A DNA stretch of 64,000 nucleotides, from NCBI RefSeq assembly GCF_028368995.1, contig NZ_JAQNDL010000003.1, positions 2,944,001-3,008,000 on the forward strand, given 5' to 3'. How positions within the stretch are numbered: the first letter of the stretch is position 1; each line of letters opens with the position of its first letter. The DNA comes from Nannocystis bainbridge (GTDB lineage Bacteria > Myxococcota_A > Polyangia > Nannocystales > Nannocystaceae). A program made the position numbers and the translations under genes. The notes beneath the pieces are model-generated. The model was not told where the DNA came from. It made no database searches and was given only the letters and a program-made list of their open reading frames with translations. Positions 5,681-63,071 of the stretch are shown one piece after another.

Positions 5681-6625
5681 ATGACCCGCGACGACCCCGA
5701 AACGCCGTCCTCGACCGGACCCAGCGCTCGGCGCCCGCTCGAGCCCTCGCCCGCCGGCGACGACCTCGGCGCCCTGTCCCAGCAGCGGCCGCTCGCGGCC
5801 CCGCCAGCCCGTGGCGGCCCCGCCGCCACGCTCGACGAGCAGCGGCTCGCCCCTTCGCCTCCCGGTGACGTCGGCCCCCTCGCCACCCCGCCCATCACCG
5901 ACGACATCCGCGTCGCCCTCGAAGAGCAGCGCCCGCCCGACAAACAGGACCTCCTCGCCACCCCTCCCATCACCGACAACATCGCCGCCACCCTCGCCGA
6001 GCAGCGCCCTCCCGAGGAGAAGGACCTCCTCGCCACCCCGCCCATCCGCGACGACATCGCCGCCGTGCTCGAAGAGCAGCGCCCGCTCGACGCCTCGCCC
6101 GGCGGCGACCTCGGCGCCCCGCCCGTCGCCGAGACATGGCGTCCGCTCACCACCCCGCCTCCCAGCGAGCGGGACAACGAGCTCATGCGCGACCCGCCGC
6201 CTGGCGAGCACCACCTCGGCCGCTTCGCCGGCTACGGCGCCGCCAACCGCGTCCGCCGCATCCTGATCGCCTGCCTCTCCGTCCTCGTCGTCGCCACCGT
6301 GTTCGTCTGGTACGGCTGGGCTCGCCAGCGCCCCGAGCCCACGACGACCCTGCGCCAGTTCGAGCTCCCGGCCGGCACCGACACCTCCGACCGCCCGCGC
6401 GTGCTCGCCTGGTCGCAGGGCAAGGCGCGCCTCGGCCTCACCCGCGCGCCCCCCGGCGTCGACACCATCGAGCTGCCCGACCGCACCCTCAAGCTCAAGG
6501 ACGGCTCCGACATGGCCCAGTTCAAGGTCGTCGTCGAGGACGGCAAGACCACCGCGCTGGATCTGGTCTCCGGCGAGATCGTGGAGATCCTTCACCCCGG
6601 CGCGACCCCGCTGCTGCAGCCATGA
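5681..6625 (+). CDS. Hypothetical single-pass membrane protein with 25-aa N-terminal repeats
   Basis: LATPPIxDxI..LxEQRP repeats; TM segment ILIACLSVLVVATVFVWYGW. Confidence 0.75.
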   Translation: MTRDDPETPSSTGPSARRPLEPSPAGDDLGALSQQRPLAAPPARGGPAATLDEQRLAPSPPGDVGPLATPPITDDIRVALEEQRPPDKQDLLATPPITDNIAATLAEQRPPEEKDLLATPPIRDDIAAVLEEQRPLDASPGGDLGAPPVAETWRPLTTPPPSERDNELMRDPPPGEHHLGRFAGYGAANRVRRILIACLSVLVVATVFVWYGWARQRPEPTTTLRQFELPAGTDTSDRPRVLAWSQGKARLGLTRAPPGVDTIELPDRTLKLKDGSDMAQFKVVVEDGKTTALDLVSGEIVEILHPGATPLLQP

Positions 6626-6669
6626 CCTCGAGGACATGTCCCTCGAGGCGTGTCCCTGAGAACATCCTC
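6618..6669. repeat. 14-bp-phased RRRCATGYYY palindrome array (4 units)
   Basis: Cores at 6621, 6635, 6649, 6663; convergent junction. Confidence 0.8.
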
Positions 6670-7654
6670 AAGGCGCCAGGATCGCCGCCAGCTCCGCCGG
6701 CCAGGGCGCCGTGAACTGCACCATCTCGCGGGACTGCGGGTGCGGCAGCGTCAGCCCGGCGGCGTGCAGCGCGTGGCGTTGCAGCCCGAGCTCCGCCCCC
6801 AGCTCCGCCAGCTTCTTCCCGCCCTCGACCACCTTTAAAAACTCTTCCTCCGGCAGCCCGTACAGCTTGTCGCCGACCACCGCGTGCCCGATCTCCGCCA
6901 GGTGCACCCGGATCTGGTGCTGCCGCCCCGTCTCCGGCAGCGCCTCCACCAGCGTCACCGGCTTCTCTCTAAAGACTCCGTGGCGCAGCGGGCGGACCGT
7001 CGTCGCTGCTGGCAGCCCCCCGTCCGCCACCGGCACCGGCCCGATCTTGATCCGGATCTTCGACCCGATCGCGAACCCCAGTGACATGTCGATACGGACA
7101 TGTTCTTCGAGACAGCCGTGAACCAGCGCCAGGTACGACTTGCGGACCTCGCGGCCGAGGAACGCCTTCTTGAGCGCCGTCGCCGAGCCGCCGCGGCGGC
7201 CGAACACCATCACCCCTGACGTCTCGCGGTCGAGGCGGTGGGCCATGTCCCAGCCGTGGCCCGGGCCCAGGCGGTCGCGCAGCACCTGCGTCAGCGTGTG
7301 GCGGTGATAGCTCGCCGACGGGTGCACTGGCAGACCGGCCGGCTTGTCGATCACCAGCAGCGCCTCGTCGCGGTAGATCTCCCGGAAGTCGAGCACCACC
7401 TCCGGCTCACGCGGCGCCGGCCGTCGGATCACCAGCGCCTCGCCCGCGCGCACTCGCTGCGACGCGCGCAGCAGCACCTCGCCGGTGTCGGCGCGGCGGA
7501 CCTGGCCGTTGTCGACGATCGTCTGCACCCGCGTGCGCGACAGTCGGGCGATCCGGCTCGACAGGAAGCGATCGAGGCGAAAGCCGTCGCGGCCCGGGTC
7601 GACGACCAGCGGGATCTCGATGAACTCCTCCGGCGGCTCGCTCACCGCGGACAT
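6668..7654 (-). CDS. rluD: RluA/RluD family 23S rRNA pseudouridine synthase
   Basis: N-terminal S4 domain; DKPAGLPVHP, HRLDRETSG, TGRQHQIRVH, GDKLYG motifs. Confidence 0.9.
   Translation of the reverse strand: MSAVSEPPEEFIEIPLVVDPGRDGFRLDRFLSSRIARLSRTRVQTIVDNGQVRRADTGEVLLRASQRVRAGEALVIRRPAPREPEVVLDFREIYRDEALLVIDKPAGLPVHPSASYHRHTLTQVLRDRLGPGHGWDMAHRLDRETSGVMVFGRRGGSATALKKAFLGREVRKSYLALVHGCLEEHVRIDMSLGFAIGSKIRIKIGPVPVADGGLPAATTVRPLRHGVFREKPVTLVEALPETGRQHQIRVHLAEIGHAVVGDKLYGLPEEEFLKVVEGGKKLAELGAELGLQRHALHAAGLTLPHPQSREMVQFTAPWPAELAAILAP
7082..7119. repeat. 14-bp-phased palindrome array inside the rluD-like CDS
   Basis: tgacatgtcg atac ggacatgttc ttcg agacag; cores at 7085, 7099, 7113. Confidence 0.65.
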
Positions 7655-7671
7655 GCTATTCTCGCCCGCAT

Positions 7672-8301
7672 ATGACCGAACCTGGTCCCAAGCCGACGAC
7701 CGCGAGTTCGCCCGAGTCCGCCCAGGGTGGCGCGCTGTGGGCGCTGATCGTGGGCGGTGCGATCCTCGTGGTCGCGGCGCTCCTCATCTTCTGGCCCGGC
7801 GGTGATACGACGGGCGGCGCGGCCGGGTCCGGCGGCAAGGGTCGGGGTGGCGGCGCCGGCCAGCAGGCCAGCCTCGCCCAGAGCGGCGGCGGCCCCGAGG
7901 CGCACGCGCTGGGCGTCGGCGCCCGCGAGTTCGACCCGCACCGCGGCAACGGCAAGGCCCGCGTCAACCCGGCCTTGCTCCCGGTCGGGCCCAAGTCCGA
8001 CTCGCTCGCCCCGCCGAAGAAGCCCAAGCCCGAGCCGACCAGCTTCCCCAGCGCCGCCGCCGAGATCGGCTACTGGGAGAAGAAACTCGACATCGCCCGC
8101 AAGGACCTGACCCAGCGCGGGGTCTTCCTCGAGCGGCTGAAGAAGGTCAAGGAGAACGCCCGCACCTCCGACCAGATCGAGCTCGCCGAGAAGCGCGGCG
8201 TGGTCGTCGAGAAGAACTACGCCGACCAGCAGAAGCTCGTCGAGGACCTCGAGAAGAAGGTCACCGGCCTCAAAGAGAAGCAGCGCCAGTCCGGCCTGTG
8301 A
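7672..8301 (+). CDS. Hypothetical membrane-anchored coiled-coil protein
   Basis: N-terminal TM segment, Lys/Glu-rich helical C-terminus. Confidence 0.8.
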   Translation: MTEPGPKPTTASSPESAQGGALWALIVGGAILVVAALLIFWPGGDTTGGAAGSGGKGRGGGAGQQASLAQSGGGPEAHALGVGAREFDPHRGNGKARVNPALLPVGPKSDSLAPPKKPKPEPTSFPSAAAEIGYWEKKLDIARKDLTQRGVFLERLKKVKENARTSDQIELAEKRGVVVEKNYADQQKLVEDLEKKVTGLKEKQRQSGL

Positions 8302-8311: not shown

Positions 8312-8377
8312 TCGCCTGTCCTTCGTGACAGGTCCCAAGGGGCATGCTCCTCCGAGCATGCCCCTTCGCGCATGTCC
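8312..8377. repeat. 14-bp-phased palindrome array (5 units)
   Basis: Cores at 8315, 8329, 8343, 8357, 8371; convergent junction. Confidence 0.85.
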
Positions 8378-8395
8378 GAACAGCCAGTCATCGCG

Positions 8396-9052: not shown

Positions 9053-10002
9053 GCCCACCCCGCCAGGCGCAGCAGCACCAGCGCCAGCGCCAGCGCCAGC
9101 GACGCGCCCCAGATCAGCCGGTGCAGCGCGGTCTTGTAGCGGCCCTGGGCCTTGAAGCAGCCGGTCAGCGCGTGCGGGCTCTCGCGGGTCAGCGCCCGCC
9201 ACGGCAGCGCCGCCGCCAGCACCGCGATCTGCACCGGGATCAGCGGGAACTCGCCGCCGCTGGCTCGCACCGCGAACATCCAGGCGATAAGGCCGGCGAA
9301 CGCCGCCGACTCGGCCGCCCGGCGCGCGACCCGGTTGCCGTACATCGTCGTCAGCGTCGCTTTGCCACCGCGGCGGTCGCTCTCCTCGTCGGACAGCCCG
9401 CTCGCCGCCGCCGACGCGAACGCCAGCAGCGCCAGCCCCGGCAGCGCCCAGCCGTACCACGGCGACACCAGCTCGCCGCTCTGGGCGTACGCGCTCCACC
9501 ACGGCACCAGCACCCCGACCCCGAGCGCCTCGACGAACTCGCCGGCCCCGCGGTCGTTGAGCCGCAGCGGCGGCGCCGAGTAGGCCAGCAGCAGCCCGAG
9601 CCCGGTCACCGCCCCGAGCATCAGCCCTGGCCGCCCCGGCAGGAACAGCTCGCCGCCCAGCGCCACCGCCAGCGCCATGACCCCGAAGCCCGCGCCCGCC
9701 AGCAGCACGCTCTCGGCCGGCAGGATCGCGTCGGGGATCGTCTTCGGCGAGCCCGCCTCGGGGAACATGCGCCGCTTCAGCGCGTCGACGTCGGCGTCGA
9801 ACCAGTCGTTGAGCAGCACCACGTAGATCGTGGCGAACACCGCGAACGTCAGGCCGACGACCGCGGCGGCGAAATCAAATGTCCCCGAGGACATGGCCCC
9901 GAGGACCTGTCCCAAGATCGCAGGAGCCAGCACCTTGGGCCAGCTCGCCGGTTTGACCGCGTGGAGCCACCGGCGCAGCGGCGAGGCGAAGGCCGGGTGC
10001 AT
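9049..10002 (-). CDS. UbiA/MenA family prenyltransferase
   Basis: NDWFDADVD and DEESDRRGGKATL Asp-rich motifs, YSAPPLRL, multiple TM segments. Confidence 0.9.
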   Translation of the reverse strand: MHPAFASPLRRWLHAVKPASWPKVLAPAILGQVLGAMSSGTFDFAAAVVGLTFAVFATIYVVLLNDWFDADVDALKRRMFPEAGSPKTIPDAILPAESVLLAGAGFGVMALAVALGGELFLPGRPGLMLGAVTGLGLLLAYSAPPLRLNDRGAGEFVEALGVGVLVPWWSAYAQSGELVSPWYGWALPGLALLAFASAAASGLSDEESDRRGGKATLTTMYGNRVARRAAESAAFAGLIAWMFAVRASGGEFPLIPVQIAVLAAALPWRALTRESPHALTGCFKAQGRYKTALHRLIWGASLALALALVLLRLAGWA

Positions 10003-11289: not shown

Positions 11290-12804
<1,515 letters not shown>

Positions 12805-12821
12805 CCGAGAGGACCTGTCCC

Positions 12822-14165
12822 ATGAGCCATATCCTCTTCGTCGCGGTCCTCGCCCTCAAGTCGCCGGCCGCCCCGGCCGCGGTCACGCTCGTCAAGGGCG
12901 GCGACCTCCACGTCGGCGACGGCACCGTCGTCGAGGACGCCACCATCATCATCCGCGACGGTAAGTTCGCCGCCGTCGGCGGCCCCGAGCTCACGGCCCC
13001 GAGCAACTCTGGGGTCACGCTCGTCGACGCCCGTGGCAAGATCATCACCCCCGGCCTGGTCGCCAGCGACAACCAGCTCGGCCTCGTCGAGATCGACCTC
13101 GAGGGCAGCACCCACGACGACGCCCGCGGCGGCGACCACCCGGTGCGCGCCGCTTACGACGCCAGCCGGGCCTTCAACGCCGAGTCGAGCCTGATCCAGG
13201 TCCAGGCGATCGGCGGCGTCACCACGGCCGCGGTCGCGCCCGCGGGCGGCTTGCTCTCGGGACAGGTCGCGTGGGTCGACCTCGTGCACGGCGACCACCG
13301 CGGCGCGCTGAGCAAGGCCGGCGTGGCGATCGACGGCAACCTCGGCCACAGCTACGGGGGCTCGCGCGCGGCCGCGCTGGCCAAGCTGCACGAGGTCCTC
13401 ACCGACGCGCAGGTGTTCCGCGGCCGCAAGGACGCCTACGAGCGGGCCCAGACCCGGCCGTTCGCCGCCCACGCGCTCGACCTGCAGGCGCTGCAGCCGG
13501 CGCTCGCCGGACAGATCCCGCTGACGCTGTCCGCCGACCGCGCCAGCGACATCCTCGCCGCGCTCGACCTCGCCAAGGAGTACAAGCTGCGGCTCGTGAT
13601 CGTCGGCGGCTCCGAGGCGTGGAAGGTCGCGCCCGAGCTGGCCGCCGCCAAGGTGCCCGTGGTGCTGCAGCCGACGCGCAACCTCCCGGGCAGCTTCGAC
13701 ACCCTCGGCGCCCGCCTCGACACCGCCGCCCTGCTCGCCGCCGCCGGCGTGCCCGTCGTCATCGCCTGGCTCGACGACTCGCACAACCTCCGCAACATCA
13801 CCCAGGAGGCCGGCATCGCCGTCGCCAACGGCCTGCCCTGGGCCGCCGCCCTGCGCGCGATCACCCTCGAGCCGGCCCTCGCCTACGGCCAGGGCACCAC
13901 GCACGGCAGCGTCGCCGTCGGCAAGGTCGCCAACCTCGTCGTCTGGAGCGGCGACCCACTCGAGCTCAGCAGTCGGCCCACCGACGTGCTCGTCCGCGGC
14001 CGCGCGATCCCGATGGTCTCGCGCCAGACCCTCTTGCGCGACCGCTACCGCAGCCTCGACAAGTTCGGCGCCGCCGCGCCATCGACGAACTCGAACGCGC
14101 GCCCTCGCCCCGACACCGGCGCCGCCGCGACCACCGCGACCACCGCGGCACCACCGCAAAAGTGA
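12822..14165 (+). CDS. Amidohydrolase-like protein lacking the HxH metal motif
   Basis: Same fold motifs (DARGKIITPGL, GKVANLVVWSGDP); ASDNQ in place of DxHxH. Confidence 0.85.
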   Translation: MSHILFVAVLALKSPAAPAAVTLVKGGDLHVGDGTVVEDATIIIRDGKFAAVGGPELTAPSNSGVTLVDARGKIITPGLVASDNQLGLVEIDLEGSTHDDARGGDHPVRAAYDASRAFNAESSLIQVQAIGGVTTAAVAPAGGLLSGQVAWVDLVHGDHRGALSKAGVAIDGNLGHSYGGSRAAALAKLHEVLTDAQVFRGRKDAYERAQTRPFAAHALDLQALQPALAGQIPLTLSADRASDILAALDLAKEYKLRLVIVGGSEAWKVAPELAAAKVPVVLQPTRNLPGSFDTLGARLDTAALLAAAGVPVVIAWLDDSHNLRNITQEAGIAVANGLPWAAALRAITLEPALAYGQGTTHGSVAVGKVANLVVWSGDPLELSSRPTDVLVRGRAIPMVSRQTLLRDRYRSLDKFGAAAPSTNSNARPRPDTGAAATTATTAAPPQK

Positions 14166-14587: not shown

Positions 14588-15082
14588 CTAATCCGACGCC
14601 TCGTCCTCGAAAGCAAATCGACCTTGTTTGTCGAGGAAATCCTTCGGGTGCCGAACGGCGACCGCGAGATCACGTAGTAAGGCTACGTGATCGCCATCGA
14701 TCGCCACCATCGTGCTCGCGTTGCAGCGGAGCGCGCAGGCGGCGATCATCGCGTCATACTTGAGGTAAGTATGACTGAGGCCCGTGCTCGTCTTGACGGC
14801 GTGCAATTTTGCCATCGGCATGCGTAAGCCGAGAATCGTCGCTGCCCGCTCGTCGAACGCAACGACGGTGATCCCCTTCACATGAGGAATCGGTTGCCCC
14901 CTCTGGCGCATCAACTCGGCGATCGTCGGTGCAGCCACAAAGAGCTCACGACCCGTACTGCACATCGCCTGACAAAACTTGACACATTCGCGAGAGACGG
15001 GTTCCTCGGGTCGTTCACCGAGGAATCGCATAAAGACTCCGGTATCGACCATGGCAGTCGAAGGCAGTGCCAAATCACCCAT
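14588..15082 (-). CDS. PIN-domain (VapC-like) protein
   Basis: VDTGVF, TIAEL, YDAMIAACA, AIDGD acidic PIN motifs; lower GC than flanks. Confidence 0.8.
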   Translation of the reverse strand: MGDLALPSTAMVDTGVFMRFLGERPEEPVSRECVKFCQAMCSTGRELFVAAPTIAELMRQRGQPIPHVKGITVVAFDERAATILGLRMPMAKLHAVKTSTGLSHTYLKYDAMIAACALRCNASTMVAIDGDHVALLRDLAVAVRHPKDFLDKQGRFAFEDEASD

Positions 15083-15821
15083 CGAGCCGTCCCTTCTCGG
15101 GGTCGTTCACAGCGCGGTACCAGTCGCGCCATACGCGTTGCGGATCCACGTCTTCGTCGAGCGGTTCAAAGTTCATGAGTCTACCCGTTGCGATCGTACC
15201 GTCGAGGTCACGTGAGACCTTCGCTTCGATTTCGATCTCGCGGTACAGGTAAGGCCCTAATTTGCGGGCGGTCGTCTGATCCGTCTGCAGAGAAAAGTCT
15301 TCCTCTAACCGACTTTCAAACCGGATAATAGGTTGCTTGCCACCTATCCGTATCGGCCGCGCGCGGATGGAGAGCAAGGAATCGAGGGGAGGAGCTACAT
15401 CTTGTTCGATCGCCTTGAGGGGTCTGCTCCATGTCGCGATCTGGACTCGCGCAACTTCCCCTGGAGCGAGACGTCGCATGGCGTTCCGCGCCCGGTCCAC
15501 GCGCTCCTTTGTCCCGCGCGGTAGCTCTTCTGAACCACCGATCTGCCGACGCGAAAGCTCAGCCATCTCGCGCGCGAACCGGAGGTCGCTCGGTTTGGCT
15601 GCAATCGCCACGCACTTGTTGAACACTTCAAGCCCGACGAGATCGAGAGACTTCTCCTGCATCTCCGCATTGGCTTCGACGAGTGCGAAGAACGCAGCCG
15701 CGAGTTCGAGAAGCGTCGCGGTCTTCACGGTACTGGGCTCGAGACCAGGCCCATCCAGCTCAAGCAGCAACCGGTCGGGTGGGACGACGCTCGGCGCGTC
15801 CTCTCGGCTGCGGCGCGACAT
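15075..15821 (-). CDS. Hypothetical protein, coupled partner of the PIN gene
   Basis: 248-aa ORF overlapping the PIN gene start by 8 bp; atypical codon usage. Confidence 0.75.
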   Translation of the reverse strand: MSRRSREDAPSVVPPDRLLLELDGPGLEPSTVKTATLLELAAAFFALVEANAEMQEKSLDLVGLEVFNKCVAIAAKPSDLRFAREMAELSRRQIGGSEELPRGTKERVDRARNAMRRLAPGEVARVQIATWSRPLKAIEQDVAPPLDSLLSIRARPIRIGGKQPIIRFESRLEEDFSLQTDQTTARKLGPYLYREIEIEAKVSRDLDGTIATGRLMNFEPLDEDVDPQRVWRDWYRAVNDPEKGRLDG

Positions 15822-17416: not shown

Positions 17417-17468
17417 GCGAATGTCCCGAGGGACATGTTACGAGGGACATGCCCTTTCAGGCATGTCC
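17417..17468. repeat. 14-bp-phased palindrome array (4 units)
   Basis: Cores at 17420, 17434, 17448, 17462; convergent junction. Confidence 0.85.
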
Positions 17469-25114: not shown

Positions 25115-25164
25115 GCATGCTCTGAAGACCATGCCCGCGAGGACATGTCTTCGCGGGCATGTCC
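25113..25164. repeat. 14-bp-phased palindrome array (4 units)
   Basis: Cores at 25116, 25130, 25144, 25158; convergent junction. Confidence 0.85.
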
Positions 25165-25187
25165 TTTGGGTCACACGGACCCCTCGC

Positions 25188-28106: not shown

Positions 28107-29435
28107 GTGCCGAGAAACCCCATCACCGCCCGCGCCCTGGCCGTTCAGACCCTCCGGCAGATCGATCAACGCCGCGGCTTCAGCAACCGGATCCTGGCCG
28201 AGCAGTTCGAGCGTCACCCGGACCTCGAGCGGCGCGAGCGCGGCCTCACCACCAACCTCGTGTACGGCGTGCTGCGCCACCGCGGCCGCCTCGACGCGCT
28301 GATCGACGCCGTCGCCGTGCGCCCGAAGAACCTCAGCGCCCGCGCGCGAGAGATCGCCCGCGTCGCCGTGTTCGAGCTGCGCGAGCTGCAGCACCCGCCG
28401 CACGCCGCGATCTCGCAGGCCCTCGGCCTCGCCACCGCGCTCGACCCGAGCGGCGGCCTGGCCCGCCCGCTGCACGCCATCCTCTCCGCCATCGACCGCG
28501 AAGGCGCCGCCGCCGACGCCCGCCTCGCCGCCGGCAAGCCGCTCGACGTGCTCGCCGATCGCTGGTCGATCCCCCGCTGGCTCGCGGGCCGCTGGATCGC
28601 CAACCTCGGCCCCGACCTCGCCCTCGCCCGCGCCCGCGCCCTCGCCGAGCCGCCCGCCGTCGAGCTGCGCGTCGACCTGTCCCGAACGACAGCCGACGAC
28701 GTCGCCGCGGCCCTGCGCGAGGCCGAGCCGAAGGCCCTCGTCGAGCCGATCGCCGACCAGCCGCAGGCCCTGCGGGTGCGCAGCGGCGGCGAGCTGGTCC
28801 GCCACCCGCTGCACGAGCGCGGCCTGTTCTCGGTCCAGGCCCTCGGGGCGCAGCGCGCCGCCCTGACTCTTGCGCCATGTCCTGAAGAACATGTCCTGGA
28901 CGCCTGCGCCGGCATGGGCACCAAGTCGCTGCAGCTGGCCGAGCTGATGGGCCGCCGCGGCCGTCTGGTCGCCGCCGACGCCAGCGAGCTCCGGCTCGGC
29001 GAGCACGCCGCCCTGCGCCGCCGCGGCGGGCTCGACGTCGAGGGCCTCGAATTCACCTCGGTGATCGCCGACCTCGCCGCCGATGAGCCGCAGCCCGGCG
29101 TCGACGACTCGACCTACGACGCCGTCCTGCTCGACGCCCCCTGCACCGGCCTCGGCAACCTGGCCCGCCACCCCGAGCTGCGCGGCACCGTGCAGTTCGC
29201 GGACATCGCCGTCTGCGCCGCCCTCCAGCGCCGCCTGCTCGACCGCAGCCGCGCCCGCGTGCGCCCCGGCGGCCGCCTGGTCTACGCCGTCTGCAGCCTC
29301 GAGCCCGAGGAGGGCCCGCGCCTGGTCCGCGCCGCGTGCGACGCCGGCAGCTTCACGCTCGAGCACGAGGAGACCTGGACGCCCGAGGCCCACCAGACCG
29401 ACGGCTTCTACCTGGCCCGCCTGCGCCCGAGCTGA
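28107..29435 (+). CDS. rsmB: 16S rRNA m5C967 methyltransferase RsmB/Sun
   Basis: NusB-like N-terminus; VLDACAGMGTKS, LLDAPCTGLG, VYAVCS, DGFYLA motifs. Confidence 0.9.
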   Translation: MPRNPITARALAVQTLRQIDQRRGFSNRILAEQFERHPDLERRERGLTTNLVYGVLRHRGRLDALIDAVAVRPKNLSARAREIARVAVFELRELQHPPHAAISQALGLATALDPSGGLARPLHAILSAIDREGAAADARLAAGKPLDVLADRWSIPRWLAGRWIANLGPDLALARARALAEPPAVELRVDLSRTTADDVAAALREAEPKALVEPIADQPQALRVRSGGELVRHPLHERGLFSVQALGAQRAALTLAPCPEEHVLDACAGMGTKSLQLAELMGRRGRLVAADASELRLGEHAALRRRGGLDVEGLEFTSVIADLAADEPQPGVDDSTYDAVLLDAPCTGLGNLARHPELRGTVQFADIAVCAALQRRLLDRSRARVRPGGRLVYAVCSLEPEEGPRLVRAACDAGSFTLEHEETWTPEAHQTDGFYLARLRPS

Positions 29436-29447
29436 GCCTTATCCTCA

Positions 29448-29471
29448 GGACATGTTCTAAAAGGCATGTCC
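29448..29471. repeat. 14-bp-phased palindrome pair just after the rsmB stop
   Basis: ggacatgttc taaa aggcatgtcc. Confidence 0.7.
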
Positions 29472-29504
29472 TGAAGGTCAGACGGCGCGTACCCTCACGC
29501 CTCC

Positions 29505-29710
29505 AGCAGTGCATCGATCGGCGCCGCGGCTCGGAGGGCAACTCCGGGCCTCGCAGCCGTTGGAGCGCATCGATCTTTGCCGGGCTCCTGGAGGGCAACT
29601 CCGGGCCCCGCAGCCGTTCAGTGTATCGATTGGCGCCGCGCTCCTGGAGGCCCACTCCAGGCCCCGCAGCCGTTCCGTGCATCCATCTGTGCCGCGCGAC
29701 TCCGGGCCGG
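29505..29710. repeat. About 55-bp intergenic tandem repeat (3-4 units)
   Basis: ggagggcaactccgggcc(t/c)cgcagccgtt recurs three times near 29533, 29589 and 29646. Confidence 0.8.
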
Positions 29711-29759: not shown

Positions 29760-29811
29760 GGACATGGCCCCGAGAGCATGCCCTTCGAGACATGCCCTTC
29801 GGAACATGTTC
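29760..29811. repeat. 14-bp-phased palindrome array (4 units)
   Basis: Cores at 29763, 29777, 29791, 29805. Confidence 0.85.
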
Positions 29812-37274: not shown

Positions 37275-37309
37275 AAAGGGACCTCTTCTTCTCTCGCGAG
37301 AGAAGAAGA

Positions 37310-39339: not shown

Positions 39340-39912
39340 ATGTCCACCCCCGACTTCGCCAGCCGCGTCCAGGCGTTCGCCGACAACCCCTCGCCCGCCG
39401 CCGCCAGAGCCCTCGCCGCGGAGCACGACGACCGCGCCTTCGCGGCCCTCGTCGAAGCGATGAACGACTTCATGGAGGGCCCCGACGCGCTCGCCTACCG
39501 CGAGGCCGTGCGCACCGTCGCCACCCCCGCCGTGCTCGCCACGTGGATGAGCGGCGACCTCGAGGCCCGCCGCACCGCCGCCCACGCGCTCAGCGCCCGC
39601 TTCCCCGAGCACGTCCCCTTCATCGCCCAGGGCCTGCGCGACCCCGACGACCAGGTCCGGGCGATCTGCCGCCGGTCCCTTCGTTCATGGTCTTCGAGCC
39701 CTGTCCTTCACGACCTGTTCCTCGAGGCAGTCGCGCACGACGACCCGCGCGTGCGCCTGCTCGCGGCCGAGGGCCTCGGCAAGCTCGGCGTCGCGGCCGA
39801 CCTGCCGGCGCTGCACACGGCCCTCGACGTCGAGCAGGACGACCGGACGCGCGACCGGCTGGCCTGGGCGATCGAGCGCATCGAAGATCAGGGCCCCGAC
39901 GGACAGGGCTGA
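39340..39912 (+). CDS. HEAT-repeat protein
   Basis: LRDPDDQVR, DDPRVRLLAAEGLGKLG; GGAG RBS. Confidence 0.85.
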   Translation: MSTPDFASRVQAFADNPSPAAARALAAEHDDRAFAALVEAMNDFMEGPDALAYREAVRTVATPAVLATWMSGDLEARRTAAHALSARFPEHVPFIAQGLRDPDDQVRAICRRSLRSWSSSPVLHDLFLEAVAHDDPRVRLLAAEGLGKLGVAADLPALHTALDVEQDDRTRDRLAWAIERIEDQGPDGQG

Positions 39913-44712: not shown

Positions 44713-45573
44713 ATGCTCAGTCCACGCATGCCCATCCCGACGGTAGAACAGCTCGGTCCGCGCTTCGCCGAGTTTCTCCGCGGACTCAAGCGGCCGCTCA
44801 TCTTCTTCGACACCGAGACCACGGGCACCGACCCGGCGCTCGATCGCGTCGTCGAGATCTCGATGATCCGCATCAGCGCCGAGCGCGGGGTCGAGCCGCC
44901 GCGCACCTGGCGGATCAACCCCGGTGTGCGGATCCCGATCGAGGCCAGCGAGATCCACGGCATCACCAACGAAGACGTCGCCGACAAGCCGACTTTCGGC
45001 CAGATCGCCGACGAGCTGCAGAGCTACCTCCGCGGCTGCGACCTCGCCGGCTTCAACATCGGCCGCTTCGACGTCCGCGTGATGCACACCGAGTTCGCCC
45101 GCGTCGGCAAGGCCTTCGACATGTCGGGCGTGCGCGTCATCGACGCCCAGGTCATCTATCACCAGAAGGAGCCCCGCAACCTCACCGCGGCGATGCGCTT
45201 CTACTGCGAGAAAGAGTTCGTCGACGCCCACGGCGCCGAGGCCGACACGATCGCCACGCTCGAGGTGTTCGCCGGCCAGCTCGAGCGCTACGGCGAGCTC
45301 GGGCTCGAGATCGAGGCGCTGCACGAGGTCTCCAACATCACCAGCGCCGGCTTCGTCGACAGCGCGCGCCGCTTCATCTGGCGCGACAACGAGCCCGTGT
45401 TCAACTTCGGCCGCCTCAAGGGCAAGTCGCTGCGCTGGGCCGCCAGCGAGCCGAACGAGCGCGCCTACATGCGCTCGATCGTCACCGGCAACTTCGACGA
45501 GGACACCAAGGGCATCGTCCGCGACGCCCTGACCGGCCGGATCCGCGTGCGCCCGCGCGAGACCGAGGGCTAG
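44713..45573 (+). CDS. DEDDh 3'-5' exonuclease (DnaQ-like)
   Basis: FFDTETTG, GFNIGRFD, HGAEAD, FNFGRLKG motifs. Confidence 0.92.
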   Translation: MLSPRMPIPTVEQLGPRFAEFLRGLKRPLIFFDTETTGTDPALDRVVEISMIRISAERGVEPPRTWRINPGVRIPIEASEIHGITNEDVADKPTFGQIADELQSYLRGCDLAGFNIGRFDVRVMHTEFARVGKAFDMSGVRVIDAQVIYHQKEPRNLTAAMRFYCEKEFVDAHGAEADTIATLEVFAGQLERYGELGLEIEALHEVSNITSAGFVDSARRFIWRDNEPVFNFGRLKGKSLRWAASEPNERAYMRSIVTGNFDEDTKGIVRDALTGRIRVRPRETEG

Positions 45574-45579
45574 CCGCAA

Positions 45580-45631
45580 GGACATGTTCCGGGGGGCATG
45601 TCGCTTCGGACATGTCCCTCGAAACATCCAC
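45580..45631. repeat. 14-bp-phased palindrome array (4 units)
   Basis: Cores at 45583, 45597, 45611, 45625; fills the convergent gap. Confidence 0.85.
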
Positions 45632-46968: not shown

Positions 46969-47538
46969 ACTCGCGTGCGAGCTGGTGAATCCGCCAGCGC
47001 GTGTCTGCGCAGTGGTTCGGGGGGTTCGGGTGGCGGGATGCGCGATTCGGCCCCCTGCAACGGCGGCTTGAGGGGCATCAAGAGCGAGCCGGACTGTTGT
47101 TCGAGGTCACTGGTTTTGCAGTGAAGTAAAACTTCTTTTCCTTCACCAAGCTGATCCGCGCATGCGCGTCCACGCGCAGTGCAGCGCTCCGCACAAACCT
47201 GGCAAACATCGCGCATACCGAGCCTGTTCTCGCCCATTCCGACGAATGTGCCGCTCTCGCTGGCGGCACGCCAGGCTGGGCAGGATCGCGGGTCGCGATC
47301 TGCCTCTTGGGGTCCGGAAAAAACTTGGCGAGATCCCCCTGAGATCTCAAGCTGCGCTTTTCGGGCCTCTTGACGGCCCTCTGACTGCCGATCGCGCCAC
47401 CCTCCGATCGTGCGCGGGACGCGGTATTCGGGCGTTCGGCGCCGAACAGCTCGCTGTTTAAAAGCAAACAGCGCGTGACCCGGGGGTCACGCGCTGGCAG
47501 GGGGCTCCGGAGGTGAGGAGGCTCCGAGGCCCGGGAGT

Positions 47539-47757
47539 TCAGCCGGCCGAAGCGCTCAGCGAGGCGGAATCGCTCGCCACGGTGTTGTTCGGGCGGGGCC
47601 ACTCGATGCGGTGCTTGATAATGCGACGCTTGAGGGCGTGGCGAGTGATTCCAAGCAGTTGAGCGGCTTCGACGATGCTGCCGGCGGCGTTGAGCGCTTC
47701 CACGCACAGCATACGTTCGGCGGCATTCAGGTTCAGATCTTCGAGGATGAGGCGCAT
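47539..47757 (-). CDS. Stand-alone Fis-type helix-turn-helix protein
   Basis: LNAAERMLCVEALNAAGSIVEAAQLLGITRHALKRRI HTH_8 pattern. Confidence 0.85.
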   Translation of the reverse strand: MRLILEDLNLNAAERMLCVEALNAAGSIVEAAQLLGITRHALKRRIIKHRIEWPRPNNTVASDSASLSASAG

Positions 47758-48132
47758 GGCGGCAGGATAGGCCAAGGCATGGGGACAGGGAAGGACGTTT
47801 TTGTAAGCCCGCATCCCAAAAGAACAGTCGCAGAATCTAAACACCGTTTTGTATTATGCAGAAGATTACAGCGTTTGCGCGCGTTCACGCCCTCGCTGGC
47901 CCGCTTCGCTGCCCACCTCGTGGGGCGCTTCACAGCCGAAATCGCCGGGCCGCGTTACACTCCTCGGCCTGGCCGGGCGGCCGTAAAAAGCTCAAAACCG
48001 ATCCAGTTTGCCGGATTCGAGCCGCGAGAACATGGTGGATTCACCATGGCCCGAGCGCACAGGGCCCGAGGCCGGTCCTAGGTTGCATAAAAGCCCTGTC
48101 GCAAGGGCGCGCAGAGTAAGATAGGGAGCCGC

Positions 48133-50726: not shown

Positions 50727-50792
50727 AGACATGCCCTCCAGGACATGTCCTTTCAAGCATTGCCTTCAGGACATGTCCCAAAGGGCATGTCC
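50727..50792. repeat. 14-bp-phased palindrome array (5 units)
   Basis: agacatgccc tcca ggacatgtcc tttc aagcattgcc ttca ggacatgtcc caaa gggcatgtcc. Confidence 0.9.
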
Positions 50793-50811
50793 AGAAAATC
50801 CTTAAAAAGAT

Positions 50812-51654
<843 letters not shown>

Positions 51655-52223: not shown

Positions 52224-52280
52224 GGACAGGCCTTGCGAGCGCACGAGCCTGTCCTTCGGGACAGGCATGACCACCTGTCC
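52224..52280. repeat. Variant palindrome cluster (ggacagg/cctgtcc)
   Basis: cctgtcc ttcg ggacagg pair at 52248/52262; convergent junction. Confidence 0.6.
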
Positions 52281-55200: not shown

Positions 55201-55216
55201 CGGGCCGGCGCGTCGC

Positions 55217-55549
55217 TCAGGCCGCCGCGGTCGCGGCCTTGAGCACGCCCTCGAGCTCGCCGTTGGCGTCCATCTCGCGGACGATGTCGCAACCACCGAC
55301 GAACTCGCCGCCGACGTAGAGCTGCGGGATGGTCGGCCAGCTGGCGAACTGCTTGACGCCCTCGCGCACGGCCGGGTCGGACAGCACGTTGAAGGTCTCG
55401 AACGGCACCGCGTGCTTCTTGAGGATCTCGACCACCATCGCCGAGAAGCCGCACTGCGGGAAGCTCTTGTTGCCCTTCATGAAGAGCATGACCTTGTTGT
55501 TGGCGACAAGGTGGGCGATGAACTTCTGGACGTCCTCGTGGGCTTGCAT
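55217..55549 (-). CDS. grxD: Monothiol glutaredoxin (Grx4)
   Basis: FMKG..FPQCGFS, WPTIPQLY, GGCD motifs. Confidence 0.95.
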   Translation of the reverse strand: MQAHEDVQKFIAHLVANNKVMLFMKGNKSFPQCGFSAMVVEILKKHAVPFETFNVLSDPAVREGVKQFASWPTIPQLYVGGEFVGGCDIVREMDANGELEGVLKAATAAA

Positions 55550-55565
55550 CGGTGGGGTCTCGCAA

Positions 55566-55747
55566 TCAGGTCCGAAGGACCGTGAAGTGGCTCAGGTCCG
55601 AAGGACCGTGAAGTGGCTCAGGTCCGGGGGACCGTGGATTCGCTCAGGTCCGAAGGACCGTGGATTCGCTCAGGTCCGAAGGACCGTGGAGTGGCTCAGG
55701 TCCGAAGGACCGTGGAGTGGCTCAGGTCCGAAGGACCGTGGAGTGGT
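55566..55747. repeat. 26-bp tandem repeat, 7 copies, with GGTCC-GAA-GGACC hairpin core
   Basis: Units tcaggtccgaaggaccgtg(a/g)a(gtg/ttc)gc starting at 55566, 55592, 55618, 55644, 55670, 55696, 55722. Confidence 0.95.
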
Positions 55748-55932
55748 GAATTGGCCAGGAGGGTCGCGGCCCGTGCGGGGGGTGGTCCCGCGGGCCGGCC
55801 GTCGCGCGCATTCGATCGCCGGGGCCGGCCGGTCGCGGCGTTAGATACACGCTGGCCCGCACCCCAGCAAGGCGCCGTGAACGCCCTTCTTGCGGAAGGT
55901 CGCCCGCTCGGGTCATAACCACTACCGCTCGC

Positions 55933-59427: not shown

Positions 59428-59465
59428 GGACATGTCGCTCGGGACATGTCCTTCGAGACATTTTC
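59428..59465. repeat. 14-bp-phased palindrome array (3 units)
   Basis: Cores at 59431, 59445, 59459. Confidence 0.8.
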
Positions 59466-59517: not shown

Positions 59518-61854
59518 GTGACTGCGCCGAGCGAGCGAGGGTCCGAGCTGCGGGGCGCGGCCGCGTTCGTCGCCGCGGCGGCGCTGCTGGCGGGGGCGCT
59601 CGCGCTGGTGCAGGTGCGGCTCGAGCCGCCGCCAGCGCTCGGCGAAGATGTCCCCGAGGACATGTTCTCCGCGACACGAGCGCTCGCGCGGCTGGAGCGG
59701 CTCATCGGCGACGACCTGCCCCACCCGGTCGGCTCGGCCGCGGCGGTGGGCCTGCGCGCGCGCATGCTGGCCGAGTTCGCGGCCCTGGGGATCGACGCGG
59801 AGGTCCAGGAGGGCTTCGCCTGCGGTCCGCGCAGCGCCGGCTGCGGGCGGGTGTGGAACGTGGTCGCGGCGCTGCCGGGGATCGAGGACGGGCCGGCGCT
59901 ATTGGTCTCGGCGCACCACGACTCGGTCGCGGCCGGGCCCGGCGCCGGTGACGACGGCGCCGGCGTGGCGGCCGTGTTCGAGGTGGCGCGGGCGCTGCTC
60001 GCCGGCCCGCGGTCGCGCAACCCGATCGTGTTCGTGCTGGTCGACGGCGAGGAGTCGGGCCTGCTCGGCGCGCAGGCGTTCGTCGACGCCCACCCGCGCG
60101 CGGCCTCGATCGGCGCCGTCATCAACCTCGACGCCGGCGGCACGCGCGGCGTCACCTCGCTGACGCGCACGACCGCGAACGACGATGGCCTGGTCGCGGC
60201 GGTCGCCGAGGCGGTGCCGCGGCCCTACGGCGCCAGCGTGATCGGGGCCGTCTACGGGCTCACGCCCTACGACACCGACTTCACCGTCTACAAGAACGCG
60301 GGCTGGCCGGCGCTCGACTTCGGCTTCGGCGAGGACAAGGCCCACTACCACACCCCGCTCGATCGCCTGGACAACCTCGACGCGGCGAGCGTGCAGCACC
60401 TCGGCGACACCGCGCTCGCGGCCGTGCGCGCGCTGGCCGGGGCCGACCTCGCGGCCCTGCCCGGGCGCTCGCGGGTGTACGTCGACGCGCTCGGGGCCCG
60501 CATGCTGCACCTGCGCACGCTGTGGATCCCCGGGCTCGCCGCGCTCGCGCTCGGGCTGCTCGTACCGGTCGCGCGTCGGCTCGCGCGCGAGTCCGGCGGC
60601 GATCGTCGCTCGTGGCTCCGGCGCGGGCTCGGCTTCGCGGCGCTGGTCGGGCTGCCGGCGGCGATCGGCGCCGGGTGGATGGCGGCGATCGCCTGGCTCA
60701 CCGCGGCCGAGGTCGCCGGCCACGCGGCCCCGCTGCCGGCCCGCGTCGCGCTGTGGACGATCGTGCTGGCGACCGGCGGCGCGCTGGTCGGGCCGCTGGC
60801 GCGCGCCGACGCGGCCGCGCGCGCGTGGCTGTGGCTCGGGCCGTGGCTGTGGCTGGCGGCGATCGCCGCGATCACGGCGGTCGCGCTGCCGGGCGCGAGC
60901 GTCGGCGTGCTGCCGCCGGCGCTGGTCGCCGGCATGCTGGCGTTTTGGACATGTTTCTTGGGCAATGCTCGTAAGAGCATGTCGTGGAGGACATGGCCCT
61001 CGGGACCTGTGATCCTCCTCGGCCTGGCGCTGCCGGCGCTGATGTGGCTGCAGGCGGCGGTGCGGGTCGAGGCGGTGTTCGGCCTCGAACCGGCGGCGGC
61101 CGGGGTGCTGGCGCTGCTGGCCTCGCTGCTGGCGCCGCTGTGGCACGGGCTCGGGCGCCTGCGCCGGCCGCTCGTGCTGGCCCTCGCGGTCGCCTGCGCC
61201 GTCGCCACGGCGATCGCCGTCACCTCGCCGGCGTACAGCGAGGCGCGGCCGCGGCGCCTGAGCCTGCTGTATCACCTCGACGCCGACAGCGGCGCGGGGC
61301 GGTGGATCGTCGGCGCGGACGCGCCGCTGCCGGCCGCGCTGCAGGCGGCCGCGGCGTTCGGCCCGGCCGGGCCGGCGTTCGCGTGGGACAGCGACGCTTC
61401 GCCCAGCTTCGTCGCCCCGGACGGTTCGTCGCCGCCCGGGCTGTCGCCGCCGACAGTCGAGCCCGAGGCGGACCCGGAGCCGCCACCGGGCGCGGGTCGG
61501 CGGGTGGTGGTGCGCGTGCGGTCGACCCGCGGCGCGCGGGTGATGGCGATGTTCGTGCCCGCGGCCGCGGGGCTGCGCAGCGTGGCGATGAACGGGGTGG
61601 TCCTGCCGCCCTACCCGGAGCACCGGCGCAAATACGTCGAGGGCGGCGAGGTCTACGGGATCGTCGCGCCGCCGCCGGAGGGCGTGGTAGTGACGCTCGA
61701 GCTGGACAGCGCCGCCGCGGTCGAGGCTGTCGTTTGGGACCTCTCGGAGGGGTTGCCCGCGGCGGGTGACGCGCTGAAGGCGGCGCGCCCGACCTGGGCC
61801 GTGCCCTCGCACGGCGGCGACCGGACCATGGTCTCGCGCCAGATCTCGCTATGA
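59518..61854 (+). CDS. M28 family peptidase with C-terminal membrane domain
   Basis: SAHHDS, GAGDDGAG, DGEESGL, NLDA, TDF, YHT motifs; multiple TM segments. Confidence 0.92.
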   Translation: MTAPSERGSELRGAAAFVAAAALLAGALALVQVRLEPPPALGEDVPEDMFSATRALARLERLIGDDLPHPVGSAAAVGLRARMLAEFAALGIDAEVQEGFACGPRSAGCGRVWNVVAALPGIEDGPALLVSAHHDSVAAGPGAGDDGAGVAAVFEVARALLAGPRSRNPIVFVLVDGEESGLLGAQAFVDAHPRAASIGAVINLDAGGTRGVTSLTRTTANDDGLVAAVAEAVPRPYGASVIGAVYGLTPYDTDFTVYKNAGWPALDFGFGEDKAHYHTPLDRLDNLDAASVQHLGDTALAAVRALAGADLAALPGRSRVYVDALGARMLHLRTLWIPGLAALALGLLVPVARRLARESGGDRRSWLRRGLGFAALVGLPAAIGAGWMAAIAWLTAAEVAGHAAPLPARVALWTIVLATGGALVGPLARADAAARAWLWLGPWLWLAAIAAITAVALPGASVGVLPPALVAGMLAFWTCFLGNARKSMSWRTWPSGPVILLGLALPALMWLQAAVRVEAVFGLEPAAAGVLALLASLLAPLWHGLGRLRRPLVLALAVACAVATAIAVTSPAYSEARPRRLSLLYHLDADSGAGRWIVGADAPLPAALQAAAAFGPAGPAFAWDSDASPSFVAPDGSSPPGLSPPTVEPEADPEPPPGAGRRVVVRVRSTRGARVMAMFVPAAAGLRSVAMNGVVLPPYPEHRRKYVEGGEVYGIVAPPPEGVVVTLELDSAAAVEAVVWDLSEGLPAAGDALKAARPTWAVPSHGGDRTMVSRQISL
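60947..61012. repeat. 14-bp-phased palindrome array (5 units) inside the M28 peptidase CDS
   Basis: Cores at 60950, 60964, 60978, 60992, 61006. Confidence 0.8.
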
Positions 61855-62168
61855 CGGCCTGGGCGCAGTTCCGTCCACATGGCCGCAGATGGGCCGAAGC
61901 ACCGGCGACAGCCGGTCCGAGGTCGTCGCCGCCGCCCGGGTTGCGGGCGCGCGAGACCCGAGGCCGGCGAGGCACGAAGCCCTGGCCCGCGCGCCTGCCG
62001 GGCCGCGTCGGCGAGCTCACCCGCGGCGCGAAGCTGCCCGGTTTTGTCGCCCTCCGCACGTCCGGCGGCGACGCCCGGCGACATTTGCTATGGTGAACCG
62101 GAAGGCGGCTGGCCGCGCGAGCGACGGGCCGTGACAACCCTTCACGACGGACTACTCTGGCTCCACTC

Positions 62169-62957
62169 ATGAACCGCCTCCGGCCCACCAAAGGGCGCCG
62201 GCCCTTCGGCACCCCGCGTCGCCTGCGCCCCGACCTCGCGCGTGACGGCGTGCTCGAGGCCGATCGCGAGGCCCCGGAGACGCAAGCGCTGGTGCGCCGC
62301 GGGGTCGGTTGGGACCAGTCGGCGGCGCTCGAGACGACCCCGTTCCGCGAGACGGACCCGCTCGATTCGCCGCTGTCGTCGCGGATCTTGAGCCTGCTTT
62401 CCGACCCGCGGATCGATTTCCTGACGGTGGCCTCGGCCGCGGACGCGCTCGGCTCGCCGCGCCAGGACGTCGAGAACGCGCTCGAGGCGATGCGCCAGGC
62501 CGGCGTGCTGCTGGCGATCGGCGGCGGCTCGGTGGTCCGCTACGGGGTCACGCCCGAGACGAAGGGCGAGCTCGAGGCCGAGTTCCGCGCCGCCGCGCAG
62601 GAGCTCGGCGAGCACGCGCTGCTGGCTCGCCTGTCGACCGAGTCGGCCATGGTGCCGTTCGAGGACGAGGAGCCGCGGCTGCCCGCGACCGCCGGCCTGC
62701 TGAGCCTGTTCCTGCCCGGCACCGGCCAGCTGCTCAACGGCGACATCGGCCGCGCCTCGCTGGTGTTCGCGGTGTGGAGCCTCGCGTGGATCACCCATCT
62801 GTCGCCGGTGTGGACCTTCGTGTGCCTGTACGCCGGCGCCGAGGCGTTCTTGACCGCGAAGATCCGCAGCATGGAGCGCAAGCTGGCCGAGGACAACCAC
62901 GCGCTGCCGCCCGCCGGCGCCGGCCCGAAGAAGCTGCCCGCGCCGCGGCCGACCTGA
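62169..62957 (+). CDS. Hypothetical protein with winged-HTH-like segment and C-terminal TM region
   Basis: LTVASAADALGSPRQDVENALEAM; LSLFLPGTGQL membrane motif. Confidence 0.75.
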   Translation: MNRLRPTKGRRPFGTPRRLRPDLARDGVLEADREAPETQALVRRGVGWDQSAALETTPFRETDPLDSPLSSRILSLLSDPRIDFLTVASAADALGSPRQDVENALEAMRQAGVLLAIGGGSVVRYGVTPETKGELEAEFRAAAQELGEHALLARLSTESAMVPFEDEEPRLPATAGLLSLFLPGTGQLLNGDIGRASLVFAVWSLAWITHLSPVWTFVCLYAGAEAFLTAKIRSMERKLAEDNHALPPAGAGPKKLPAPRPT

Positions 62958-63005
62958 GTCCGTTCGGGCAGGTCCCGGGTCGGCTTTGCATCGAGGTGTT
63001 CTTTA

Positions 63006-63071
63006 GAGCATGTCCCCGGGCACATGCTCTTTCGAGCATGCGCGAAGGGGCATGCCCTTTCGAGCATGTCC
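63006..63071. repeat. 14-bp-phased palindrome array (5 units)
   Basis: Cores at 63009, 63023, 63037, 63051, 63065; convergent junction. Confidence 0.9.

Follow-up and report, generated by a model that had tools for sequence, protein, structure and literature searches.

Phased 14-bp Dyads Behind the Genes of Nannocystis and a Candidate XRE Reader

We describe a short DNA element, here called the box, that forms phased arrays at convergent gene junctions in a 64,000-nucleotide stretch of the soil myxobacterium Nannocystis bainbridge (assembly GCF_028368995.1, contig NZ_JAQNDL010000003.1, positions 2,944,001 to 3,008,000 of the forward strand). This stretch is referred to as the window, and its own numbering is used for features within it. 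The repeat unit is TGTCC-N4-GGACA, a symmetric dyad of 14 bp. The distribution, register, and conservation of the box lead us to favor, at roughly even confidence, the view that it is the double-stranded DNA site of a two-fold symmetric helix-turn-helix (HTH) protein, most likely the small XRE protein P0001, and that the boxes make up a chromosome-wide binding lattice that is piled up behind genes. The box arrays are real and are undescribed in the literature that was searched (mostly without subscription papers), where no account of the motif was found. What is new here is that Rho was not found in the family genomes sampled, that the box occurs in three genera, and that an XRE protein can be named as its candidate reader.

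The Box and Its Register

The Nannocystis genome that carries the window (G000) comprises 11.05 Mb in 5 contigs with 71.5% G+C, and genes were called with a self-trained finder (9,144 genes, 88% coding) whose stops are reliable and whose starts are less so. Boxes were scored with an 18-bp weight matrix, taking at least 12 bits as a box and at least 8 bits as a weaker level, and chance was controlled for by the same scans on the reversed genome or on reversed gaps. There are 11,035 boxes genome-wide, compared with 121 after reversal. The word CATG reappears at distances of 14, 28, and 42 bp, and the spacer within the dyad is fixed, with the exact pattern TGTC-N6-GACA occurring 3,663 times against 78 for N5 and 120 for N7. 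The spacing between neighbors is as strict, being 14 bp in 5,513 cases, 15 bp in 3, and 13 bp in none. Boxes chain into 3,959 arrays genome-wide (28 in the reversed genome), and on contig C4 there are 276 arrays at a period of 14 versus 7–19 at periods of 12, 13, 15, and 16. The units are degenerate, the commonest 14-mer accounting for 36 of 12,885. Arrays in convergent gaps mostly have 3–7 units, and the longest, of ~22 units, lies on C3 near 1.238 Mb with no regulator gene beside it. Boxes are evenly spread along the chromosome and are sparser in lower-G+C stretches; around the skew switch on C3 of this 5-contig assembly their in-gene density is 0.53–0.59 per kb, as elsewhere. Gene bodies contain ~4,300 of the boxes, at 0.46 per kb. 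Long in-gene arrays often correspond to 14-residue peptide repeats in linker-like regions, three boxes being equal to 14 codons, and 107 arrays scoring at least 40 fall within called genes.

Placement Behind Genes

An earlier, sequence-only reading had listed 13 convergent stop pairs in the window and placed phased arrays at 10 of them. The stop pairs match the self-trained gene calls, with a further doubtful pair near 19399/20052 that rests on weak calls. A box of at least 12 bits is indeed present at 10 of the 13 junctions, but only 9 have a phased array. In the remaining gap, 52215/52295, one strong box (52250–52263) in the single-site form with CC/GG flanks, accompanied by two out-of-phase half-matches, lies within a long inverted repeat, and boxes occur in 5/5 orthologous gaps. 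The three junctions that had been given as exceptions (14584/14588, 55200/55217, and 46968/47539) have no box even at 8 bits. The arrays were also described as beginning at the stop codon and filling the gap, and they do start within ~5 bp of the stop at 6625, 17477, 29435, 37088, 45573, and 25114 (here with a weak first unit) and cover 93–100% of the gap at 6625/6668, 25114/25188, and 45573/45634. Across the orthologous gaps of five sister species, a box is kept in 42 of 43 that can be aligned, while the gap length (65–608 bp) varies and the sequence turns over; the two alignable box-free junctions have no box in 10/10 sister gaps.

The preference for convergent junctions extends to the whole genome and survives length matching. 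Among gaps of 40–600 bp between genes of at least 300 nt, a box is present in 728/1,088 convergent, 701/2,462 tandem, and 137/1,008 divergent gaps, equivalent to densities of 16.0, 4.2, and 1.2 per kb, and the length-stratified odds ratios for convergent gaps are 5.8 against tandem and 17.8 against divergent ones. The reversed control gives 7/1,088 convergent gaps with a box. For core genes with a high G+C content at third codon positions (GC3), the proportion of convergent gaps with a box is 362/434 (83%). When each gene end is counted separately in gaps of 240–700 bp, the difference between orientations is much smaller, with a box at 156/412 convergent 3′ ends (38%) and 202/680 tandem 3′ ends (30%; odds 1.44, p = 0.006), compared with 22/702 and 38/680 of the 5′ ends (3–6%). 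Density peaks 10–40 bp behind the stop, at 18.4 per kb for convergent and 14.6 for tandem ends, before dropping to ~4. Hence, the orientation bias is mostly a gene 3′-end effect, and convergent gaps are the richest because two gene ends meet there. The element marks the ends of transcription units and avoids promoters. Tight operon joints with clean starts are close to gene bodies in this respect (70/1,506 versus 55/1,565); a further 144 such joints (73 with a box) were excluded because the called start fell on an ATG inside the box, which accounts for apparent boxes in tight operons.

These data bear on one proposal of the sequence-only reading, that the arrays attract a topoisomerase to places where positive supercoils accumulate. 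The enzyme would be gyrase or topoisomerase IV, and the supercoils would come from convergent transcription. The per-end excess at convergent junctions is real but small, and the repetitive extragenic palindromic (REP) sequences and bacterial interspersed mosaic elements (BIMEs) of E. coli provide a precedent, according to the accessible part of PMC3733652. However, box density is nearly equal behind tandem and convergent stops and declines toward the middle of the gap, and the two ends of 206 long convergent gaps behave independently, both having a box in 28 cases where 29.5 are expected. Because convergence thus adds little beyond supplying two gene ends, the supercoil idea is weakened, and we regard topoisomerase recruitment as improbable.

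Boxes are scarce behind low-GC3, probably foreign genes, being present at 11% of their convergent ends compared with 58–67% otherwise. This scarcity would suit a self-mark kept by molecular drive, in the manner of the DNA uptake sequences (DUS) of Neisseriaceae and Pasteurellaceae or of cyanobacterial HIP1, which are genome-wide short words kept in coding DNA and poor in foreign DNA; gene-end arrays would then be a by-product. High copy number, conservation at silent sites, and the presence of ComEC point the same way, although ComEC is also found in the box-poor genome G019. DUS are not palindromic, and HIP1, an uninterrupted 8-mer, shows neither phased arrays nor a preference for gene ends, whereas the box is a bipartite dyad that is strictly phased, avoids promoters, and has a matching HTH gene with boxes at its own start. 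A self-mark is in our estimation hardly more probable than topoisomerase recruitment.

DNA Site or RNA Hairpin

The half-sites are equally conserved on the transcribed strand. At tandem ends, G·T and A·C mismatches between the arms occur in a ratio of 631:268 (2.35) for leading-strand genes and 414:627 (0.66) for lagging-strand genes; the ratio tracks the replication strand, not transcription. Of the in-gene boxes in the window, 26/27 can be aligned in five sister species, nearly all of them colinear, and A/T third positions in in-gene box cores are kept in 79% of cases (n = 145) versus 41% elsewhere (n = 4,272). The box therefore behaves as double-stranded DNA, with a fixed spacer and phase, strand symmetry, and retention at silent sites.

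An alternative is that the arrays act as RNA, in the shape of stable hairpins formed in either direction, which would shield the 3′ ends of mRNAs or be recognized by a factor that reads stems, as with TRIT or REP RNA. The observation that adjacent units can fold on either strand is correct in so far as both strands fold, and 10/10 strands tried were more stable than shuffles (z of −2.2 to −6.0), but the structures are mainly long nested hairpins in shifting registers, not one hairpin per box. Compensated arm changes are 1.3–1.8 times the expected number in chained intergenic boxes, in a test that is biased downward by the score threshold (265 versus 200, 119 versus 70, and 65 versus 36 in convergent arrays), compared with near expectation in genes. 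Moreover, the arrays sit right behind stops, and ends with a box, as well as the sense strand, show a modest excess of hairpins with a U-rich tail (hairpin-U signals). Against an RNA role, 56–82% of the variant arms have no compensating change, boxes inside genes show conservation but no compensation, A·C exceeds G·U on the sense strand of lagging-strand genes (627 versus 414), and it is not clear what an exact spacer and phase would mean for an RNA. We consider it unlikely that RNA is the selected form, although an RNA side effect is likely, given that transcribed arrays fold into stable hairpins on both strands.

Distribution of the Box

A strict box pattern was counted in each of 73 genomes of the family. 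It occurs 149–3,363 times in 23 genomes from three genera and 2–43 times in the other 50, and a strict three-unit pattern has 4 matches among 185,579 species, all of them Nannocystis. An apparent restriction of the box to Nannocystis was wrong, since genera g2 and g4 carry boxes that stricter patterns or samples had missed. Four low-density sister genomes hold their boxes mainly within genes (15/19, 18/28, 17/21, and 11/13) and mostly singly, with no excess behind stops over starts, whereas in the denser G550 and G009 boxes gather behind stops (13/25 and 31/125); three box-poor genomes gave 0–3 matches. In a deep-branching member of the genus the boxes are also mainly single and have CC/GG flanks, which suggests that the single box is the base form and that the chain arises from a self-overlapping flank. 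Because the sister genera with fewer boxes hold them mostly singly in genes, gene-end arrays would seem to have expanded later from an older lattice that was tolerant of position, a sequence of events suggested by comparison between genomes. Arrays turn over quickly between species.

The older function common to the three genera would then be a chromosome-wide lattice of single sites, mostly in genes, serving nucleoid organization. In Nannocystis, where the gene of the candidate reader is duplicated, the sites would have multiplied to arrays 10–70 bp behind the stops at transcription-unit ends, while being kept out of promoters and tight operon joints. Exclusion by promoters and codons may be one reason for the position of arrays behind stops, another being that slower read-through would help a cell without Rho, where a patch of protein together with a stable RNA hairpin probably slows read-through too, as a secondary gain.

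A Candidate Reader

On sequence comparisons, the most likely reader of the box is P0001, a candidate with two genes outside the window, one copy at G000:C1:4266693-4267073 on the minus strand and a paralogue at G000:C3 ~1091670-1092055 on the plus strand. The gene is present in 20/23 box-rich genomes, the three misses being 60, 65, and 67% complete, and in 0/50 box-poor family genomes, and it is duplicated in all 11 Nannocystis. A box of at least 8 bits lies within 150 bp of the gene start in 28/31 copies, compared with 2/16 other XRE genes and with 8–25% for a box near the start across all G000 genes. In G013, G464, and G480 a phased box triple stands at −54/−40/−26 of the XRE gene; 200 kb of G013 contained 0 triples and 4 pairs. 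The HTH_3 domain scores 47.6 bits against a curated cut-off of 23, the recognition-helix region is nearly invariant among 24 sequences, and a basic insertion of ~20 residues follows helix 1. The close relatives of P0001 form a narrow group of 3 clusters at E ≤ 1e-30.

Neither a search against PDB sequences nor Foldseek (at E ≤ 0.001) gave a match to P0001. Its predicted model (pLDDT 79) has a lambda-repressor-like fold, similar to that of C.AhdI, SinR, P22 c2, and 434 repressor (Z of 9.5–11.3), with Z of 11.3 and a root mean square deviation of 1.1 over 66 residues for C.AhdI, and like SinR it combines an N-terminal HTH with C-terminal helices. The homodimer prediction scores 0.26, short of the 0.42 at which it would carry a verdict. 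Repressors of this class read 14-bp dyads with half-sites one turn apart, the 434 repressor operator has a 14-bp 4-6-4 geometry, and C proteins have tandem self-operators. The box resembles the operator of such a dimeric HTH protein in being a strand-symmetric dyad with an invariant spacer that is conserved as DNA, and in having a candidate cognate protein that co-occurs with it and carries the site at its own start. With half-sites 10 bp apart, one dimer could read two successive major grooves; each 14-bp step would rotate the next dimer by ~120°, so that dimers might pack side by side. P0001 would repress its own gene and thereby match the amount of protein to the number of sites.

Several points weigh against this assignment. 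P0001 was selected by visual inspection among 97 small basic proteins whose codon use is ribosomal-like. Copy A is at the 97th percentile of such codon use, but copy B has a low rank, and codon use is a poor proxy at 71% G+C; as a rule, XRE regulators are present in small amounts. The three box genera probably form one clade, so that the co-occurrence profile amounts to one gain, and it was judged on its own rather than beside a count of other genes sharing the three-genus pattern. The 31 XRE upstream regions are related to each other, those of G544 and G545 have no box, and in Nannocystis copy A the strongest upstream boxes are also just behind the stop of the preceding gene. Box placement in the sister genera comes from small samples (60–380 kb per genome), the excess of compensated changes is a sign of some hairpin selection or of template switching, and a nucleoid lattice explains the attraction to stops (18 falling to ~4 per kb) only indirectly.

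Other proteins were rejected as readers. A winged-helix nucleoid-like family and the small Fis-like proteins are family-wide, in 23/24 and 24/24 relatives, respectively. Nor does the box resemble a LexA/SOS box, being absent from lexA promoters, which bear a different conserved GTTCAG site, and failing to track the LexA sequence, whose HTH is near-identical in box-rich and box-poor genera. L062 (G000:C2:1707006-1707593) and its paralogues have N-terminal helices, a basic linker, and a C-terminal winged helix, a build like that of nucleoid silencers, and this family is found in 23/24 family relatives and 0/16 others.

Termination Context

The Rho RNA-binding domain was not found in any of 19 family genomes (G000 and 18 relatives), whereas it is present in 10/12 others of the class. 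In a class sample of 151 genomes Rho was likewise found in 0/22 family genomes and in 71 genomes overall, and tblastn with six Rho frames gave, for the Rho part, a best hit at E = 7e-4. Mfd is present in 5/5. Across the class, Rho was not found in 80/151 sampled genomes, including entire families, which is wider than the single species on record: the accessible part of PMC11347177 describes loss of Rho as thought to affect mostly small A+T-rich genomes and records one myxobacterium (Haliangium). Loss in Nannocystaceae is not on record in that part, and the one supplement covered has no match to four Nannocystaceae names. How bacteria without Rho end their transcripts is treated as an open question in the available part of PMC13289151, which reports intrinsic-terminator features in only 22% of Synechococcus units. 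With Rho missing, a termination role for the arrays is worth testing.

The sequence-only reading had remarked that classic terminators are mostly missing at the arrays. This is true but is nothing special to them, as hairpin-U signals in gaps of at least 100 bp are found at 27% of core convergent ends with a box (n = 617) and 17% of those without (n = 344), the corresponding core tandem values being 21% (n = 366) and 14% (n = 701); ~80% of long-gap core gene ends lack the signal. Many tRNA genes are followed by one, and the looser detector is rough, finding 22/50 behind last tRNAs and 13 in antisense. At least 5 T within 10 nt past the last box are found in 4–7% of cases, short of the U tract of an intrinsic terminator. 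Arrays and intrinsic terminators at first seemed to exclude each other (6% versus 17%), but this was a masking artifact, since transplanted masks give 3.5% and a stricter detector shows none. The arrays do not replace hairpin-U terminators. Contig ends near array junctions in a ~94% identical relative were considered as transcript ends and rejected, because they are the same in RNA run X7 and the probable DNA run X1, and assembly breaks at repeats explain them.

A possible, though clearly less favored, explanation is that a protein roadblock is the selected job of the arrays and takes the place of Rho. In this scheme, XRE dimers would polymerize on phased boxes, let ribosome-coupled polymerase pass, and stall ribosome-free polymerase from either side until Mfd released it; boxes within genes would do likewise against antisense transcription. 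The missing Rho, the presence of Mfd, the scarcity of hairpin-U signals, a box in most core convergent gaps, tight operon joints no richer than gene bodies, the near-absence from 5′ ends, and a palindromic site that acts both ways are all consistent with it. Against it, boxes and intrinsic terminators are not exclusive once masking bias is controlled, and where a convergent pair leaves no room, boxes are not displaced into the partner (10/203 versus 30/900, p = 0.30). Furthermore, only 8/104 tRNA-type genes have a box behind them, and in many cases the first box already overlaps the stop, so that an mRNA ending there would be incomplete. The 50 box-poor family genomes get by without many boxes, and those sampled for Rho lack it too. 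The ~4,300 in-gene boxes, and the low-density sister genera that hold theirs mostly within genes without a post-stop excess, limit any reading based on termination at gene ends. Of the roles first proposed for the arrays, the roadblock by a DNA-bound protein fits their anatomy best, RNA-hairpin selection being weak.

Were the roadblock true, one DNA-binding protein, devoted to this task and controlling its own gene, would end most core transcription units. It would represent a third class of bacterial terminator, encoded in DNA and comparable to the eukaryotic roadblocks Reb1 and TTF-I. What the data show is an 11-Mb, 71% G+C genome in which Rho was not found, a signal is present at 83% of core convergent junctions, and a candidate reader can be named. 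Even if termination plays no part, ~11,000 specific sites read by a single small XRE protein would make up a chromosome code of unusual density, of which the sister genera appear to show an earlier, single-site stage.

Comparison with Known Systems

REP/BIME sequences are palindromes, present in hundreds to thousands of copies downstream of genes, for which roles in termination, mRNA stability, and gyrase binding have been proposed (PMC3733652, accessible part). The box is similarly an abundant palindrome 3′ of genes that favors convergent and tandem over divergent gaps and is sometimes found in genes (same part of PMC3733652). In contrast, its consensus and flanks have no GTAG or CGTC terminal tag, where REPs have hairpins of 20–40 nt it has degenerate 14-bp dyads that keep an exact register, and there is no sense-strand G·U bias, the G·T/A·C ratio tracking the replication strand. 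The REP-associated tyrosine transposase (RAYT; Y1 transposase PF01797) was found in 0/11 genomes of the genus, with positive controls, but CGTC REPs also lack RAYT (PMC3733652, in part), so this alone is not decisive. REP-like gene-end repeats have lacked a clean reader-site pair.

It is very improbable that the boxes are remnants of a REP- or REPIN-like mobile repeat spread by a transposase or reverse transcriptase, even though their location bias is that of REPs (PMC3733652, as far as accessible), arrays turn over quickly between species, and msDNA-like repeats have been reported in N. exedens, as cited in the available part of PMC6868368. The missing transposase and the diversity of the 14-mers stand against it, as do in-gene boxes that are mostly colinear and built by substitution, and neither the upstream regions of two retron-like reverse transcriptase genes nor the insertion sites of 7 group II introns have a box.

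With the TRIT element of Mycobacterium (PMC3152330, in part) the box shares restriction to a narrow lineage, conservation, high G+C surroundings, and a palindromic two-way motif near stops. The accessible part of the same paper postulates a factor for TRIT and describes TRIT as a long conserved RNA stem in 147 copies, compared with ~11,000 boxes. The box is, unlike TRIT, a phased DNA dyad that is conserved in genes too, in a host where Rho was not found.

Closer likenesses are found among DNA-binding proteins of the nucleoid. Noc with NBS, SlmA with SBS, MatP with matS, and the XRE-like nucleoid protein EspR pair short palindromes, many of them in genes, with a dimeric reader, and sites and reader are confined to the same lineages. 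Sites of the Noc, SlmA, and MatP type number tens to a few hundred and are confined to or excluded from the terminus region, whereas boxes number thousands, are even along the chromosome, and are chained behind genes. By analogy, the mode of action of the box appears closest to that of sites read by a sequence-specific nucleoid protein, with 10–100 times as many copies as is usual for such sites. XRE/Cro-C1 proteins such as SinR, C.AhdI, DdrO, P22 c2, and 434 have a few to some hundred promoter operators; here, promoters are avoided except that of the candidate reader's own gene.

Individual Arrays and Other Features

Within the window, a three-box array (6623–6664) begins on the TGA stop and fills the 6625/6668 gap, and five boxes (8317–8386) lie in the 8301/8396 gap, both with boxes in 4/4 orthologous gaps. 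Three boxes at 17422–17463, with a weak fourth extending to 17477, adjoin the stop of the minus-strand pirin gene (3/3 orthologous gaps). Four boxes at 25118–25173, with a weak fifth over the stop, form a plus-strand hairpin that is followed by TTT. The 29435/29925 gap holds two arrays, of three boxes (29439–29480) after the plus-strand stop and of four (29765–29820) 105 bp from the minus-strand stop, between which a 56-bp unit is repeated 3.4 times (29507–29697). Two offset box pairs and a single box (37091–37173) come after the stop at 37088, and one strong and one weak box (37256–37283) lie behind the minus-strand stop at 37310. Boxes are present in 5/5 orthologous gaps for the array of three strong boxes with a weak one on the stop (45571–45626) that fills 45573/45634, for the five boxes at 50732–50801 that end 11 bp from the minus-strand stop at 50812, and for the five at 62997–63066 in the 62957/63088 gap.

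The same element occurs without convergence behind the stop in the tandem gap 59411/59518 (59433–59460), and boxes at 12774–12829 span the stop at 12804 of another tandem pair. In-gene pairs of boxes are found in a pseudouridine synthase gene (7087–7114, colinear in sister species), a UbiA-family gene (9880–9907), an RsmB-family gene (28864–28891), and the M28 peptidase gene (59649–59676); a HEAT-repeat gene has three (39674–39715), and the M28 peptidase gene has a five-box array (60938–61007).

Among the box-free junctions, the 16-bp gap at 55201–55216 is 15–25 bp long and box-free in 5/5 sister species. The 3-bp exception 14584/14588 is probably a junction with foreign DNA; the adjoining 14588–15728 (minus strand) holds two genes of atypical codon use, one weakly PIN-like, that were not found at this junction in five sister species. 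The gap at 46969–47538 is conserved in length (559–570 bp) and in blocks of sequence in 5/5 sister species, and it may hold a promoter, a small RNA, or a small gene and so not be a plain convergent gap; an Rfam search of the window, this gap included, gave no match. A classic minus-strand hairpin with a U-rich tail (47471–47494, z of −5.7) lies in it behind the gene at 47539–47844 (minus strand), which encodes a small stand-alone Fis-like HTH_8 protein with 11 relatives in the same genome. Such proteins number 3–14 per Nannocystis genome and 1–7 in other genera of the family.

Further repeats include ~8 tandem copies of a 26-bp unit (55540–55773) upstream of a glutaredoxin gene, the unit containing a short inverted repeat similar to a box whose spacer has 3 bases, and a duplicated block with collagen-like genes (30849–36044), its copies ~3.3 kb apart. 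In G011 (L084–L093), TGTA-N2-TACA occurs 14 times against 0.8 expected and TGCA-N2-TGCA 36 times against 8, perhaps another repeat. The group II intron copies L156, L160, L161, L163, L164, L167, and L171 have ATG or GTG directly after their 3′ end in 7/7 compared, as if inserted at start codons. The 65-residue protein encoded at G000:C1:1377114-1377311 presumably resembles bacterial histone-fold proteins, and a cluster of ~30 tRNA-like genes lies at G000:C2:2556665-2559233, with smaller tandems of same-amino-acid tRNAs elsewhere.

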